This document shows positions 7,234 to 52,838 of a stretch of DNA of 52,937 nucleotides, piece by piece (within the stretch, counting starts at the first letter, position 1; each line of letters begins with the position of its first letter). Below the pieces are notes generated by a model. That model was not told the origin of the DNA. It ran no database searches and saw only the letters and a program-made list of their open reading frames with translations. Origin of the DNA: Planctomycetota bacterium (GTDB lineage Bacteria; Planctomycetota; UBA1135; UBA2386); the NCBI GenBank assembly GCA_016873195.1, contig VGXW01000003.1:1-52937 (forward strand), given 5' to 3'. Both the position numbers and the translations under genes were made by a program.

Positions 7234-7325
7234 GGGGCCGCGCAGCATAGCGCGGGCCGCGCGGTCGCGGGCGGCGGCGCGCGCTGCTGCGGACCCGGGC
7301 GCGGTGAACGGGTATCGTCCCGCGC

Positions 7326-8126
7326 ATGCTCGTCCGGACGCTGCTGTCGTCGTTCGCCTGCGGATTGCTGTGCCTGGCCGGCCCCGCGGCCCTGCCCGCG
7401 CAGGGCAAGCCGAAGGTGGCCGAGCCCAAGGTCGAGAAGCCGAAGGCCGGCAAGCCCGCTGGTCCGGTGAAGGAGGATCCGCTGACGGCGAAGGACCCGG
7501 TCGTCGTGGCGCTCGACAAGTTCCGCAAGGACAAGGTCTCGACGAAACGCGCCGACTGGAAGACGGCGCTGCCCGCTCCGCCGCTGCAGACCTTCGACGG
7601 CAAGCGCGACTACCGCTGGCACGTCGAGACGGACAAGGGCACGTTGACCGTGCTGCTGCTGCCCGAGGCGGCGCCGATGCACGTGACCTCGGTGATCTAC
7701 CTCGCGCGCTGCGGCTTCTACGACGGGCTCGGGTTCCCGCGCATCCTGAAGGGGTTCATGGCGCAGGGCGGCAGTCCGACGAACACGACGTCGGGCAACG
7801 CGGGCTACACCATGGACGGCGAGTTCCTCACCGGCGCGAAGCACGACCGCGAAGGCACGCTGAGCGCGGCGAACTCGGGCCAGCCGAACACCGACGGCTC
7901 GCAGTTCTTCCTGACCTTCGTGCCGACGCCGCACCTCGACGGCAAGCACACGGTGCACGGCTACGTGACCGAAGGACTCGAGGTGCTGCGCGCGATCGAG
8001 GCCTGCGGGACCGACCAGGACGGGCAGGCGCCGCGCGAGTCCGTGACGATCGTGCGCACGTGGATCACCGTGGCGCCGAAACCGCCGGCGGCGCCGGGCG
8101 TGGGCGACGGGCAGACCGGCCGCTGA
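7326..8126 (+). CDS. Secreted cyclophilin-type peptidyl-prolyl cis-trans isomerase
   Basis: GFYDGLGFPRILKGFMAQGG, LSAANSGQPNTDGSQFF, HLDGKHTVHG. N-terminal signal peptide. Confidence 0.93.
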   Translation: MLVRTLLSSFACGLLCLAGPAALPAQGKPKVAEPKVEKPKAGKPAGPVKEDPLTAKDPVVVALDKFRKDKVSTKRADWKTALPAPPLQTFDGKRDYRWHVETDKGTLTVLLLPEAAPMHVTSVIYLARCGFYDGLGFPRILKGFMAQGGSPTNTTSGNAGYTMDGEFLTGAKHDREGTLSAANSGQPNTDGSQFFLTFVPTPHLDGKHTVHGYVTEGLEVLRAIEACGTDQDGQAPRESVTIVRTWITVAPKPPAAPGVGDGQTGR

Positions 8127-8153
8127 ACCAGGCGCTCTCTGCGGGCCCGCGGC

Positions 8154-9731
8154 CTATCGCGCCGGCGCGACGCGGAACACCACGTGCTGCTCCTGCCCGT
8201 CGACCGCGGCGCGCGGCGCGTTCGCCTGCAGGTGCAGGAAGCGCCGGCCGGCAAAGCGCTCGAGCACCGCGTGCGCCATCGCGAACGGCAACACCTCGCC
8301 GCCGGCCCCGGTCGCCGCGGCCTCGGCGCGCACGGCCGTGCAGCCGGCGGGCAGCAGCCCGTCGACGGCAACGCGCACCGGCACGCAGGCGCCGCGCTCG
8401 CGGTCGGTGCCGTACATGTCCCACGCGCGCGCGTGGAAACCCTGCGCCCAGTCGACGCGCACCGTGAACGCGCCGCCCCCGGTCCGCTCGACCGCGACCT
8501 GCTCGCGCGGATCCCGCGTCGCCGCGAACGGCCGTAGCGTCGGATCGCCGAGCAGCACGCGGTTGGCGCCGCCGCCCTGCATCACGTGTTCGCCGCGGTC
8601 GACGAACTTCCCGCCCTCGACGAGGTCGAGGCGCAGCGGGCCCCGCGCGGCGAGCAGCACGTCGTCCCACGACGACTTCACGGCCTCGCCGAGACTCGCA
8701 CCCTCGCGCAGCGCGAACTCCGATTCGCGCATCGCCGACATGCCGTGGTTGGGCCCGACCGGCGCCAGCAGCGCCACGGCGCCGGCGTCGAGGAACGACA
8801 GGCCGAGGCTCTGGTCCAGCGGCAGCAGGTGCACGGTGCCGCGCTCGGCGCGGCCGAACGTGGAGACGATGTCGCCCTCGAGCACCACGCGGTGCGTCGC
8901 CGCGGCATGGCACGTGCCGCTCCAGACGATGGTGCCGGGCAGCTGCATCGTGCGCACGTCGGCCGCGAGCAGGCGCGGCATCGCGCCGCCCGGATCCTGG
9001 CCGACCTTGCCGGGCTCGTAGTCCCAGTGCTTCTCGCGCTGGAGGTTGCGGTCGCCGTCGAACAGCCAGATGCCCTGCGGGTCGCCGTTGCCGCTCCACT
9101 CGAGCACGTTCGCCTGCGCGAGCTGCGGCAGCGCCCGGCGCACGAACGCGCGCACATCGGGATCCTGCTCGACGATGCCGAAGTAGTACGAGTCGCCCGC
9201 GAAGCCGGCCGCGCGCTCGAGCTCGGAGCGGTGGCCGCGGTAGATCGTCGACTGCATGCCCGAGGCGACGCCAGCACTGTGCCAGATCCGCCCGCGCAGG
9301 CCCTGCCGGTGCAGCTCCTCGGTGCGCGCCCAGAGGGCCGCGAGCGCCTTGCCGTCGCGCGCGGTCAGGTAGCCGAACGCGGCGTCGGCGCACGGGTCGT
9401 CGTCGAGGCCGGCGAGCGCGAGCAGGATGCGGCGGTGCAGCGTCACGTCGAAGCGCTCGGGACGCACGAAGAACAGCACCGCGGGCGGGCTGCCGTGCCC
9501 GAGCAGGCGGGTGCGCAGCGCGGCGTCGTCCGTGCCGTCCCAGGCGAGCTGCGGGGCGCCGTGGAACTTCGCTGCGGCCTTCGCGACGGCGAGGAAGTCG
9601 CGGTCCCCGGCGTCGGCGGCATCGAGCGCGATGGTCACGACCGCGGCGCGCGGCGCGGCGGGCGGCGGGGGAGTTGCCGGCGGCACCTGCGGCAGGGGTG
9701 CTTGCAGCAACGCGGCGAACTGGAGGAGCAT
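8154..9731 (-). CDS. Hypothetical protein with a gingipain/C25 (caspase-fold)-like domain
   Basis: FGYLTARD, WSGNGDP, WSGTCH, SLGLSFLDAGAVALLA, GASLGEA, LLGDP pattern resembles C25/CHAT-type domains. Confidence 0.55.
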   Translation of the reverse strand: MLLQFAALLQAPLPQVPPATPPPPAAPRAAVVTIALDAADAGDRDFLAVAKAAAKFHGAPQLAWDGTDDAALRTRLLGHGSPPAVLFFVRPERFDVTLHRRILLALAGLDDDPCADAAFGYLTARDGKALAALWARTEELHRQGLRGRIWHSAGVASGMQSTIYRGHRSELERAAGFAGDSYYFGIVEQDPDVRAFVRRALPQLAQANVLEWSGNGDPQGIWLFDGDRNLQREKHWDYEPGKVGQDPGGAMPRLLAADVRTMQLPGTIVWSGTCHAAATHRVVLEGDIVSTFGRAERGTVHLLPLDQSLGLSFLDAGAVALLAPVGPNHGMSAMRESEFALREGASLGEAVKSSWDDVLLAARGPLRLDLVEGGKFVDRGEHVMQGGGANRVLLGDPTLRPFAATRDPREQVAVERTGGGAFTVRVDWAQGFHARAWDMYGTDRERGACVPVRVAVDGLLPAGCTAVRAEAAATGAGGEVLPFAMAHAVLERFAGRRFLHLQANAPRAAVDGQEQHVVFRVAPAR

Positions 9732-48173: not shown

Positions 48174-48249
48174 TGGCTCCTCGAGTAGGACTTGAACCTA
48201 CGACCCGGTGATTAACAGTCACCTGCTCTACCGACTGAGCTATCGAGGA
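48174..48249 (-). tRNA. tRNA-Asn (GTT)
   Basis: TCCTCGATAGCTCAGTCGGTAGAGCAGGTGACTGTTAATCACCGGGTCGTAGGTTCAAGTCCTACTCGAGGAGCCA; full cloverleaf with CCA. Confidence 0.97.
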
Positions 48250-48552: not shown

Positions 48553-49134
48553 TCAGTGCTTCGCGACTTCCATCTTGCGCAGGCGCAGCTTCTCGGTGCC
48601 GGCCAGCGCGTTCTTGACCATCTCGTCGGTGAAGGCCTTCTTGTCCTTCACGAAGAGGAGGGCCTTGCCGTTGAGGCCGTTCGGGTGGACCCGGATGACT
48701 CCTTCGAGCTTGCTCAAGACGTCACGCGTCTCGATGGCCGTGCTCATTCAACCAAGTCCGGCGACTTGTGCCTCGTAGACCACCTCGGCCTTCGGCAGTT
48801 CGACCTCGTTGATGCTCTTGACCCGCACCTTCTTGATCCGCTCGTCGGCCAGCGCCTTGTTGAGCGCCTCGACCTCCGGGGGGTGCTTGCCGACGTCGCA
48901 GTAGCCGATGCCGGTGGTGTCGAAGATCAGGTTCTTGATGCCTTTCTGTTTGATCAGGATCGCACGGACCCTGGCGGCCTCGGAGGCCGCCCCTCAACCT
49001 CCCAGTCCGGTCGTTTCGATCTTGAAGAGCTTCTCGGTGCCGTCCTTGGCGGGGGCTGCTGGCGCCTGGGTCTGGGCCAGGGCCGGAAGGGCCAGGGTCA
49101 GGGCAGCGAGCAGCATGCGCGCTGGCGTTCTCAT
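48553..49134 (-). CDS. Candidate secreted double-HMA-domain selenoprotein (in-frame UGA at codons 47 and 129)
   Basis: Manual translation: MRTPARMLLAALTLALPALAQ...KLFKIETTGLGG-U-GAASEAARVRAILIKQKGIKNL...VVYEAQVAGLG-U-MSTAIETRDVLSKLEGVIRV...EVAKH*. AAGGA RBS upstream and a SECIS-like hairpin after each UGA. Confidence 0.8.
48714..48734 (-). promoter_or_regulatory. SECIS-like hairpin for the UGA at 48750-48748
   Basis: UCGAGACG-CGUGA-CGUCUUGA; 8-bp stem (one G-U), loop G 23 nt after the UGA. Confidence 0.7.
48955..48973 (-). promoter_or_regulatory. SECIS-like hairpin for the UGA at 48996-48994
   Basis: CAGGGUC-CGUGC-GAUCCUG; 7-bp stem (one G-U), loop G 29 nt after the UGA. Confidence 0.65.
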
Positions 49135-49251: not shown

Positions 49252-50940
49252 TCAGCCGTCGGCGAAGCGCCAGCCGGAGAGGTCCTTGCCCGGGGGAGCG
49301 TCGGCCAGCGCGGCCCGCACGGCGGCGATCGGGATCGAGTTCTGGTGCAGCACCGCGTCGTGGAAGCGCTTTTCGGTCCACGGGGAACCCGGCCGGACGA
49401 GTTCCCGGTGCAGGGCGCGCAGCTGCAGGCCGCCGAGCATGTAGGCCGCCTGGTAGAGGGGGCCGTAGCCGCCGCCGAGGGAGCGGCGCACCTCGCCCTC
49501 GGCCGCCGCGCGCTCGTGGCCGACGCGCTCGACCAGGTAATCGACGCAGCGTGGGCCGGACCAGGCGCCGAGGTGGAAGTTCAGCGAGAAGACGATGCGC
49601 GCGCAGCGGTGCTTGCGCCAGTAGAGCATGCCGATGCGGTCCTCGGGGCCGTGGGCCAGGCCCAGGTCGTAGAGCCGCATCTCCCAGTAGAGCGCCCAGC
49701 CCTCGGTCCAGAACGGCGTCGCGAACAGCCGGCGCCAGGGCCGGTGCCGCGGTTCGGCGAACTCCTGCAGCCAGTGGCCCGGGATCAGCTCGTGGTGGAC
49801 CGTGGCGCGACAGAAGTGCTCGTTGTTGCTGCGCAGCGACTGCAGCTTCTCGTCATGGCCCATCGCCGCGGTCGGGAACGACAGCCGGATCGTCTCGCCG
49901 CCGAGGAAGAACGGGTTCACCTTCTGCGCCTCGGGGCCCAGCATCGCCATGCGCCAGCACTCCTTGGCCAGCGGCGGGATCGTCAGCAGGTCGCGCTGCT
50001 CCAGGAAGTCGATCGCCTCGCGCGCGAGGTCGGCGACGAGTTGCGGCTGCTCGCCCGGCGCCCGGTGGCGCTGCTTCACGAGTTCGAGGGCCCGGCGCCA
50101 GTCGTCGCCGCAGCCCTGCTCGCGCGCGGCCGCCGCCAGCTCCGCGTCGCACCACGCGAACTCGCGTTCGGCGACGGCGACGAGCTCGGCGGGGGAGTAG
50201 GGGATCCACTCCGCGGCGAGTTCCTGCCGCAGCGCCGCCTCGCCGATCGGGTCGCCGACGAGGCTGCCGTCGCCGCCGCCGGCCGAGGCCTTGCGGCGCA
50301 GGGCTTCCTGCAACTCGCCGAGCGCCTGGTCGGCCGCCGCCCAGGGCGCCGCGACCCACCACGAGAACAGCGGGTCGTAGCCGTCGCGGAACTCGAACCA
50401 GCCGCGCAGCGCCCCGCGCAGGTCGCGGACGCGCTGGGCGGCGCGGGCCGGCAGTGCCGGCGGCAGGGCATCGAACTTCCCCTGCTGCAGACCCGCGCGC
50501 ACCTCGGCGGCGCGCCCGGCGATGCCGGCGCAGGCCGCCGCCGCGCCCTCCGGGTCGACGGGCTCGAGGCGGCGCCGCGCTTCGCCGAGGGACACGATCG
50601 TGTCCGCGAACGGCAGCAGCCCGTGCAGTGCGGCATCGCGGGCCGCCTCCGCGTCGAGCCGCCGCATGGCCGACCGCACATGGTTGTCGAGCAGCAGCCA
50701 GTCGACGCGCCGTTCGCGGTCGAGCGCCGTGAAGTCGAGCGCCTGCAGGTCGCGCTGCTCCTGCCGCAGGCGGTCGCCGAGCCGCGCGCGCCGTTCGCCC
50801 GACATCGGCTGGTCGTAGCGCCGGCCGAGGTCGGCGAGGTCGGCCGCGAACCACTCGGCGCGCTGGCGCAGGTCGGCCGGCGCCTGGGCCGGCAGCGGGG
50901 CGAGCAGGAGCAGGGGGAGCGCGCACGCGAGAGGTCGCAT
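49252..50940 (-). CDS. DUF885 family secreted protein (metallopeptidase-like)
   Basis: HHELIPGHWLQ, FWTEGWALYWE, PLYQAAYMLG, FHDAVL; signal peptide. Confidence 0.88.
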   Translation of the reverse strand: MRPLACALPLLLLAPLPAQAPADLRQRAEWFAADLADLGRRYDQPMSGERRARLGDRLRQEQRDLQALDFTALDRERRVDWLLLDNHVRSAMRRLDAEAARDAALHGLLPFADTIVSLGEARRRLEPVDPEGAAAACAGIAGRAAEVRAGLQQGKFDALPPALPARAAQRVRDLRGALRGWFEFRDGYDPLFSWWVAAPWAAADQALGELQEALRRKASAGGGDGSLVGDPIGEAALRQELAAEWIPYSPAELVAVAEREFAWCDAELAAAAREQGCGDDWRRALELVKQRHRAPGEQPQLVADLAREAIDFLEQRDLLTIPPLAKECWRMAMLGPEAQKVNPFFLGGETIRLSFPTAAMGHDEKLQSLRSNNEHFCRATVHHELIPGHWLQEFAEPRHRPWRRLFATPFWTEGWALYWEMRLYDLGLAHGPEDRIGMLYWRKHRCARIVFSLNFHLGAWSGPRCVDYLVERVGHERAAAEGEVRRSLGGGYGPLYQAAYMLGGLQLRALHRELVRPGSPWTEKRFHDAVLHQNSIPIAAVRAALADAPPGKDLSGWRFADG

Positions 50941-51041: not shown

Positions 51042-52622
<1,581 letters not shown>

Positions 52623-52761
52623 GGTCGGGTGAAGCGGGAACGCGGGAACGCGGCGGTGGCGTGACGGTACTGACGGAGCGCGAGTCGATCCAGCGCGGGC
52701 GCCGCAGGAAACCGCTTGCGTGGGTCTCGGGCCCCCGCTAGCGTGCCGCGCCCAAAACCGC

Positions 52762-52838
52762 GCGCCCGTAGCTCAATTGGATAGAGCACCAGACTACGGA
52801 TCTGGGGGTTGGAGGTTCAAGTCCTCCCGGGCGTGCCA
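52762..52838 (+). tRNA. tRNA-Arg (ACG)
   Basis: GCGCCCGTAGCTCAATTGGATAGAGCACCAGACTACGGATCTGGGGGTTGGAGGTTCAAGTCCTCCCGGGCGTGCCA. Confidence 0.97.

Follow-up and report, generated by a model that had tools for sequence, protein, structure and literature searches.

We analysed a stretch of 52,937 nucleotides (nt) from a Planctomycetota bacterium (contig VGXW01000003.1 of assembly GCA_016873195.1, positions 1 to 52,937; this whole stretch is referred to as the window), which carries on its minus strand a gene with two in-frame TGA codons, each followed by a hairpin that resembles a bacterial selenocysteine insertion sequence (SECIS). The gene, listed with its features in Table 1, reaches its full 193 codons only if the TGAs at codons 47 and 129 are both read through, the predicted residue being selenocysteine (Sec). 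Read-through is supported by homologues that continue across the same columns and by an AlphaFold2 model whose fold spans both TGAs. The source genome, a metagenome-assembled genome (MAG) with 72.9% GC, encodes tRNA-Sec (anticodon UCA), SelA and the wing domain of SelB, together with a SelD that is itself a selenoprotein with an in-frame TGA. TGA is at the same time the usual stop codon of this genome, closing 1875 of the 2370 confident open reading frames (ORFs), and a code in which TGA specifies Trp is therefore excluded. Two tRNAs were the only Rfam matches in the whole window at the gathering threshold, with none at the hairpins.

A preliminary description of this DNA had reported two matching hairpins with a CGUG(C/A) loop, an additional hairpin directly after UGA1, a GGT codon before both UGAs and a number of codons nearby that are unusual for such GC-rich DNA. 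The hairpin sequences, the CGUGC and CGUGA loops, their coordinates and the distances of 29 nt (site 1) and 23 nt (site 2) between the A of the UGA and the loop G were all recovered on the minus strand, as were the GGT codons (in GGA GGT at site 1 and CTT GGT at site 2) and the unusual codons that had been named (GGA, CTT, CGT, TTG and AAA). The hairpins begin 13-20 nt past their TGAs and the loops 27 and 21 nt past them; the positions of the loop GU in Table 1 are counted with the U of UGA as 1. The extra hairpin is indeed present in the sequence and in the minimum-free-energy fold. It shares C48973 with SECIS hairpin 1, and it was tested below as a helix of 7 base pairs (bp; 48974..48990, loop CCG).

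Table 1. Coordinates of the predicted selenoprotein gene, its RNA and protein features and the neighbouring genes, numbered along the window
Feature	Position	Strand	Remarks
Coding sequence of the predicted double selenoprotein	49134..48553	-	193 codons; ATG at 49134, TGA stop at 48555-48553; translated with TGA = U
UGA1, predicted Sec47	48996-48994	-	context G-L-G-G-U-G-A-A-S; TGA in 63/63 distinct homologues covering the column
UGA2, predicted Sec129	48750-48748	-	context A-G-L-G-U-M-S-T; TGA in 63/64 distinct homologues, TGC (Cys) in homologue L074
Predicted SECIS element 1	48973..48955	-	7-bp stem CAGGGUC/GAUCCUG, loop CGUGC at 48966-48962; GU at +32/+33
Predicted SECIS element 2	48734..48714	-	8-bp stem UCGAGACG/CGUCUUGA, loop CGUGA at 48726-48722; GU at +26/+27
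Extra 5' hairpin GGCGGCCU-CCG-AGGCCGCC after UGA1	48991-48973	-	8 bp, as drawn in the preliminary description; in the minimum-free-energy fold
GGU codon before UGA1	48997..48999	-	GGT in 36/38 Gly codons at the column; position -1 is U in 60/62 homologues
GGU codon before UGA2	48751..48753	-	GGT in 35/35 Gly codons at the column; position -1 is U in 62/63 homologues
Predicted signal peptide, codons 1-20 (MRTPARMLLAALTLALPALA, then QT...)	49075..49134	-	hydrophobic N-terminus; cleavage site inferred, not computed
HMA-like domain 1, residues 33-114	48793..49038	-	beta-alpha-beta-beta-alpha-beta; predicted Sec47 in the beta1-alpha1 loop, motif GLGG-U-GAAS; AlphaFold2 model
HMA-like domain 2, residues 118-190	48565..48783	-	predicted Sec129 in motif GLG-U-MST; family profile, AlphaFold2 model and fold search
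DUF885 protein	49252-50940	-	directly upstream of the selenoprotein gene
Phosphoenolpyruvate (PEP) carboxykinase	51045-52772	-	upstream of the DUF885 gene
tRNA gene	48177-48249	-	just downstream of the selenoprotein gene

RNA folding, which the preliminary description had proposed as a check, gave a divided answer. When stretches of 61-62 nt were folded with RNAfold, both SECIS hairpins were present in the minimum-free-energy structure, but the energies were not significant (z = -1.1 to -1.5; 16-29 of 200 shuffled sequences folded equally well or better), and the minimum-free-energy structure of a 111-nt fold at site 1 contained the extra 5' hairpin only and lacked the SECIS hairpin. Hairpins of this kind also occur by chance: a stem of at least 7 bp with a 4-6-nt loop that starts with GU is found at this distance after 741 of the 65,436 TGA triplets considered in this genome (1.13%), and with a stem of at least 8 bp after 321 (0.49%). 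With ordinary folding energies and such a chance level the single sequence therefore proves nothing, and we take the argument for the hairpins to be carried by conservation and covariation across homologues.

The two hairpins were compared with the bacterial SECIS model as it is given in PMC13188914 (legend of its Fig. 2), which describes a stem of 4-16 bp that carries a loop of 3-9 nt, a distance of 16-37 nt between UGA and loop, a G in the first two loop positions that is usually followed by G or U, and an energy of at most -7.5 kcal/mol. Both lie inside the ORF directly downstream of an in-frame UGA and have 5-nt loops on stems of 7 and 8 bp, the second loop position is a G in all 124 homologue loops scored, the UGA-loop distances are 27 nt and 21 nt, and the energies of the isolated hairpins are -8.2 (site 1) and -9.1 kcal/mol (site 2). 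Because they agree with every sequence and structure criterion of this model, the hairpins qualify as canonical bacterial SECIS elements. They are like the SECIS of Escherichia coli fdhF in being stem-loops within the ORF just 3' of the UGA, with a small loop that has GU at positions 2-3, and the upper stem, the loop distance and the energy fall within the ranges of the bSECISearch consensus model. They differ from the bacterial model in that their stems show no bulged U, in the more distant GU of site 1 with a separate, partly conserved hairpin in the spacer, and in a strongly conserved U just 5' of the UGA, which lies outside the published model.

By analogy with E. coli, a complex of SelB, GTP and Sec-tRNASec would recognise the apical loop, and Sec would be delivered once the UGA enters the ribosomal A site. 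The extra 5' hairpin would have to melt when the ribosome arrives at UGA1, like the lower stem of E. coli fdhF. According to PMC4513850, a SECIS has to open in its lower part after the ribosome has taken up the UGA. This would apply to the extra hairpin (+7 to +23) too, which therefore presumably cannot belong to the structure at decoding.

Conservation and covariation of the hairpins

When 61 genomes, the source genome and 60 relatives, were searched in six frames, 14 proved to have the gene; every copy has exactly two in-frame TGAs, and identity goes down to 24%. A scan of species-representative genomes contributed 32 loci, nearly all of them with a Planctomycetota label, and one of metagenomes 31 further loci; after removal of duplicates 64 distinct homologues were left, 63 of which cover site 1. 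In public protein collections the family is mostly stored as three fragments (positions 1-46, 53-129 and 131-193) that are cut at the TGAs. Other public entries are full-length with W at both Sec sites (e.g. P0002 and P0003), and the matching loci (L049 and L099) have TGA there.

Covariation was evaluated on genome-derived nucleotide alignments of 39 (site 1) and 40 (site 2) sequences, which were anchored on the TGAs and are essentially gap-free, and hence were fitted to no structure. The stems proved to be conserved in the TGA-containing homologues, a point on which the preliminary description had made its proposal depend. In SECIS helix 1, 99.3% of the cells are paired and five of the seven pairs have undergone compensatory change, and in SECIS helix 2 these numbers are 97.2% and seven of eight. 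Controls in which the 3' partner was slid by 1-3 columns, with pairing taken over the whole tested structure, reached 30-48% and 24-43%, respectively. The covariation score, calculated for the whole structure (SECIS helix plus flanking helix), was reached by none of 500 shuffles in either alignment. Stems are fully paired in 59 of 62 homologues at site 1 and in 53 of 62 at site 2, where for instance GAGACG:CGUCUU is replaced by GAACAUC:GAUGUUC, GAGCAUC:GAUGCUC, GAGGCC:GGCCUU or UGACC:GGUCU.

Synonymous codons are frozen within the hairpins: R137 is encoded by CGT in 39/39 cases, R57 by CGT in 25/25, R55 by AGG in 35/35 and L140 by TTG in 33/37, all of them rare forms in this genome, and the codon for R148, just outside the hairpins, varies (CGC 21, CGG 10, CGA 2). 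Judged from the alignments, the hairpins are under selection at the RNA level. One homologue, L074, provides a natural exchange of Sec for Cys. It has TGC at site 2, and there CUGCUG has replaced GUCUUG in the 3' arm, at the cost of three of the eight pairs; at site 1 the same gene has kept both the TGA and an intact hairpin. The loss of the hairpin together with the UGA is the outcome one would expect of a SECIS.

Conservation of the extra 5' hairpin is partial: pairing holds in 72.2% of cells, three of the seven pairs have changed on both sides, and the hairpin is shorter in homologues where Ala-Ala is replaced by Ala-Lys. We also considered a long lower helix enclosing SECIS 2 (columns 13-22 with 50-60); it is paired in 78.8% of cells and absent from the sequence of the window itself, and was not counted as part of the element.

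Fold of the encoded protein

The AlphaFold2 model, based on 39 homologues, has a mean predicted local distance difference test (pLDDT) score of 87.3 and of about 96 outside the signal peptide, and consists of two beta-alpha-beta-beta-alpha-beta units, i.e. the ferredoxin-like fold by which HMA domains (Pfam PF00403) are defined. The best Foldseek matches to the model were the tandem HMA domains of Bacillus subtilis CopA (E = 1.1e-5) and of human ATP7B, and the single-domain CopZ structure 6ff2 was aligned at a template modelling (TM) score of 0.88 and a root-mean-square deviation of 1.3 A. In line with this, the family profile found ATP7B (E = 1.9e-5), HMA4, CopZ and MerP among the sequences of the PDB, with E values from 1.9e-5 to 3e-3. 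In the profile alignment Sec129 falls on the first Cys of the GMxCxxC motif and Thr132 on the second.

The two halves of the protein are related as well. An alignment of the N-terminal with the C-terminal half by hhalign (probability 89.6%, E = 1.9e-6) pairs Sec47 with Sec129 and R57 with R137, and both hairpins exactly overlie helix alpha1 of their respective HMA domain; site 1 carries six extra nucleotides (two inserted codons) relative to site 2. On the basis of these comparisons the protein is taken to be an internal duplication of one Sec-bearing, CopZ/MerP-like HMA module, and the two SECIS elements to be paralogous copies inherited with that module. The hairpins match because the duplicated module puts the UGA and the Arg codon of the loop (CGU) at homologous positions. 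A signal peptide is predicted and transmembrane segments are not; at the presumed end of the peptide Q21 is invariant and A20 nearly so among 39 homologues, and the pLDDT is below 50 for residues 1-29.

With known HMA domains (CopZ, MerP and the N-termini of CopA and ATP7B) the protein shares the fold and a reactive residue in the beta1-alpha1 loop after G-[LM]-x, and furthermore the tandem layout of B. subtilis CopA and the signal peptide of MerP. It differs from them in having Sec in place of the first Cys and in having no second Cys in the CxxC motif (U-x-x-T and U-G-A-A-S), as well as in its lack of a Pfam match and of the context of a mer or cop operon.

The conservation of TGAs and stems with compensatory changes, the presence of the Sec machinery and the position of Sec129 on the first HMA Cys bear out the earlier proposal that the UGAs code for Sec and that the hairpins after them are SECIS elements. 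We consider it very probable that the gene encodes a secreted two-domain protein of the HMA fold with Sec at each first metal-binding Cys, and that each UGA is recoded by a canonical SECIS within the ORF.

Several observations weigh against this interpretation. On the RNA side there are, besides the unremarkable folding of the single sequence, the facts that the arms of the hairpins encode a conserved helix (R-V-R-A-I-L and E-T-R-D-V-L), so that part of the nucleotide conservation reflects constraint on the protein, and that several compensatory changes coincide with amino-acid changes. Moreover, the shuffle statistics overstate independence because the homologues are related, and the exchange of Sec for Cys was followed at the single locus L074 (Cys is also seen in the protein sequences P0004 and P0006). 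On the protein side, Pfam gives no family at E <= 1 and the gathering score of PF00403 is not reached; in NCBIfam release 20 nothing scores above its cut-off, with the protein (P0001) obtaining 14.6 bits (E = 0.027) against the cut-off of 95 for NF041115 (UxxU_metal_bind), and thus falling outside that family, and the MerTP_fusion model giving 12.3 bits only. The GMxCxxC motif is incomplete, with Thr132 in domain 2 and Gly-Ala-Ala-Ser in domain 1 where the second Cys would be expected, and the flanks examined contain no mer or cop genes, the neighbours being the DUF885 and PEP carboxykinase genes. Finally, the source MAG is fragmented into 809 contigs, its completeness being 89% and its contamination 3.3%.

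Candidate selenoproteome and alternative explanations

The genome was mined for TGAs with a coding-like G+C content at third codon positions (GC3) on both sides, which held for 337 of 35,016 TGAs, 55 of these being followed by a hairpin with a GU loop. This led to 18 candidate Sec sites, SelD included: the two sites of the gene described here, a deiodinase-like one, six in proteins of the thioredoxin/AhpC fold, those of FdhA and SelD, four in FG-GAP paralogues with a U-C dipeptide and two in proteins without a Pfam match. Of 14 read-through proteins compared with Pfam, 12 matched a family, and at nine sites (deiodinase-like, thioredoxin/AhpC-fold and FdhA) the matched domain spans the TGA. The loops at the 18 sites are of the CGUG type (5), the AGUU type (6), GGUC (3), GUU (2, FdhA included), GUC (1) and CGGGC (1, SelD). 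In FdhA the GU lies at +23/+24, as it does in E. coli fdhF.

For a single MAG this is a large selenoproteome, with sites on contigs C10, C27, C596, C87 (two sites in one ORF), C110, C262, C321, C354, C426, C736 and C405. The four FG-GAP/VCBS-repeat paralogues (C24:6833-8491, C204:7783-8859, C497:1542-2745 and C574:800-1903; L058 and L063-L065) have their in-frame TGA in a U-C dipeptide (e.g. NW-U-CIGMSPQF), and behind it comes a hairpin of 7-8 bp whose loop, AGUUC or AGUUG, is at +23; the two small proteins without a Pfam match have Sec sites in the contexts KR-U-KTC and HC-U-GIL. On the minus strand of contig C129 (plus coordinates 7292-8551) there is an ORF similar to Leu/Glu dehydrogenases that ends in ...KGKGGGG-TGA-GGC-TGA, with GGT before and a GC hairpin of 8 bp, looped by CGUGC, after it. 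It was a further match of the CGUG-loop scan described below, and its end may represent Sec at the penultimate, C-terminal position or else an ordinary stop codon whose hairpin is like that of a terminator.

The GGT codons before the two UGAs, mentioned in the preliminary description as a side feature, turned out to reflect a signal that is more general than the CGUG loop. Six of the 18 candidate sites follow Trp (UGG), where there is no synonymous choice. At the remaining 12 the codon before the UGA ends in U in 11 cases (GGU six times; CUU, AGU, CGU, UAU and UGU once each), the exception being ACC. The background frequency of U at third positions is 3.0% genome-wide, 6.6% in Gly codons and 5.8% before genuine TGA stops. 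In 28 Sec-containing SelD genes of the same order the Gly codon before the Sec-UGA is GGT in 22, GGC in five and GGG in one, counts that are not independent because those genes are related. If the bias towards NNU-UGA is functional, what is understood of Sec decoding in bacteria would be extended by a context rule. One could suppose that the lineage uses an extended Sec signal, made up of a functional NNU-UGA and a G(U/G) pentaloop, and that the protein is a new class of periplasmic selenolate binder of Cu or Hg, a combination that we put forward tentatively and regard as rather doubtful. The U at position -1 may then weaken termination by release factor 2 (RF2) or favour the accommodation of Sec-tRNASec, and the two Sec residues would jointly supply the two-coordinate site that is otherwise given by CxxC.

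The preliminary description had suggested that the CGUG(C/A) loop is a lineage-specific signature with which the whole selenoproteome could be mined; on this reading the elements would be real SECIS and the CGUG pentaloop a specialised class preferred by the SelB of this lineage. Loops of the form C-G-K-G-N are indeed found not only at both sites of this gene, in a thioredoxin-like gene (C321) and in C736 but also in SelD, where this genome has CGGGC and other clades have CGUGA or CGUGC. However, 12 of the 18 candidate sites, FdhA included, have AGUU, GGUC, GUU or GUC loops, and CGUG-type loops are found at only five. The loop is also variable at the same site: among 62 homologues site 1 has CGTGC (23), AGTTC (19), CGTGA (17), CGTGG (1), GGTTC (1) and CGTGT (1), and among 62 at site 2 there are CGTGA (57), CGTGC (2), CGGGA (2) and CGTGG (1). 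The CGUG that the two sites share is the shared Arg codon of the helix (CGU) plus the G that follows, and it fits the general N-G-[G/U]-N-N loop of the model in PMC13188914. A specialised CGUG class therefore seems unlikely, and the loop does not hold as a mining signature. When the proposed scan was carried out (TGA, stem of at least 6 bp, CGTGN loop) it gave 54 matches among 66,014 TGA triplets, only three of which are credible Sec sites. The sequence of the loop is hence a poor handle for mining, and the 18 candidate sites in one MAG were recovered by combining coding-frame GC3 to either side of the TGA with a hairpin of the generic GU-loop kind and U at position -1.

Of the known selenoprotein genes of the genome, which the preliminary description had named as a test of the shared structure, FdhA has a GU-loop hairpin and SelD one with a G-G loop, the loops being GUU and CGGGC. 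The SECIS of SelD (contig C405, locus L071) has a 9-bp stem with the loop CGGGC at +30 to +34. It is missed by RNAfold on the single sequence, and the conclusion that this leaves, namely that SelD lacks a hairpin with GU or GG, was rejected when the comparison of 28 Sec-SelD genes (loci including L105-L133) revealed the stem. In other clades of the order SelD has CCU-CGUGA-AGG at the same place.

It is also conceivable that the hairpins are a by-product of the codons for a conserved amphipathic helix (R-x-R-x-I-L) and have no role as RNA, the UGAs being recoded otherwise if at all. The exact position of the hairpins over helix alpha1, the high amino-acid conservation of this region and the z-scores of the single sequence agree with such an explanation. 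Against it, six-fold and four-fold degenerate codons are frozen to the rare CGU, AGG, UUG and ACG in a genome with 3% U at third positions, and outside the hairpins the codons for the same residues vary freely. Amino-acid changes, where they occur, alter both arms together so that pairing is kept, and the hairpin decays in the one homologue in which Sec is replaced by Cys, which makes a by-product highly improbable. More improbable still is that the TGAs are true stops (of three small ORFs or a decayed pseudogene), are passed by near-cognate read-through, or mean Trp or Gly in an alternative code: this would account for the three fragments or the W at both sites that public gene callers mostly give, but it is contradicted by the first strand before and the first helix after the TGA in each HMA domain and the confident fold of the whole (pLDDT of about 96), by the persistence of both TGAs at the same columns down to 24% identity, by the regular use of TGA as a stop in this genome, by the Cys at site 2 in L074 and the canonical Cys at this place in HMA relatives, and by the complete Sec machinery.

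Related proteins, gene neighbourhood and possible function

For a secreted double selenoprotein of the HMA fold, the most likely function is the periplasmic binding or hand-over of a soft metal, e.g. Cu(I) or Hg(II), by one selenolate per domain, and we would give this about an even chance. As the second ligand of CxxC is absent, the two domains may have to cooperate. With neither the second Cys nor mer or cop neighbours, it is the fold that suggests the metal-binding role. The gene neighbourhood was tried as a further clue. The order PEP carboxykinase, DUF885, selenoprotein is kept on the same strand in many homologous loci, with the DUF885 gene directly upstream in 39 of 77 loci and the PEP carboxykinase gene in 31 of 77; conserved as it is, this neighbourhood is uninformative on metals and was set aside.

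MerP in the strict sense has a single HMA domain and is encoded within a merR/T/P/A operon, and the two domains and non-mer neighbours found here place the protein outside that family. The closest parallels among selenoproteins are NF041115 and a 'MerP' selenoprotein of the GOS metagenome, which are likewise small HMA-like proteins with Sec in place of a metal-binding Cys. NF041115 differs in having one domain with a UxxU motif, against two domains with one Sec each in the protein described here. For 'MerP' a table of PMC2398784 lists two sequences.

The SECIS biology of the gene is thus ordinary and belongs to the known bacterial class; it is the selenoprotein family that is apparently undescribed and uncatalogued. 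The main text of the 2026 selenoproteome review PMC13188914 contains none of the terms 'HMA', 'PF00403' and 'FG-GAP', and a literature search that covered mostly listings and keyword passages found no description of this protein family or of the U bias at position -1. The predicted protein extends the use of Sec in metal-binding HMA domains to a secreted, tandem variant with one Sec per domain. To our knowledge almost no selenoproteins of Planctomycetota have been characterised, and the gene offers this phylum a clean pair of SECIS elements that is supported by covariation and comes with a natural exchange of Sec for Cys as a control.

A relative that would need neither UGA nor SECIS was found in P0106 (194 amino acids; family profile E = 1.4e-5), which resembles the protein of the window in length and, with its signal peptide ahead of two HMA domains, in architecture, and differs from it in having Cys-x-x-Cys in both domains (GMSCGAC). 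Two other distant relatives were observed, of which P0029 has three domains with a W, presumably TGA, in each GMT-W-G..C motif, and P0008 has neither Cys nor W.

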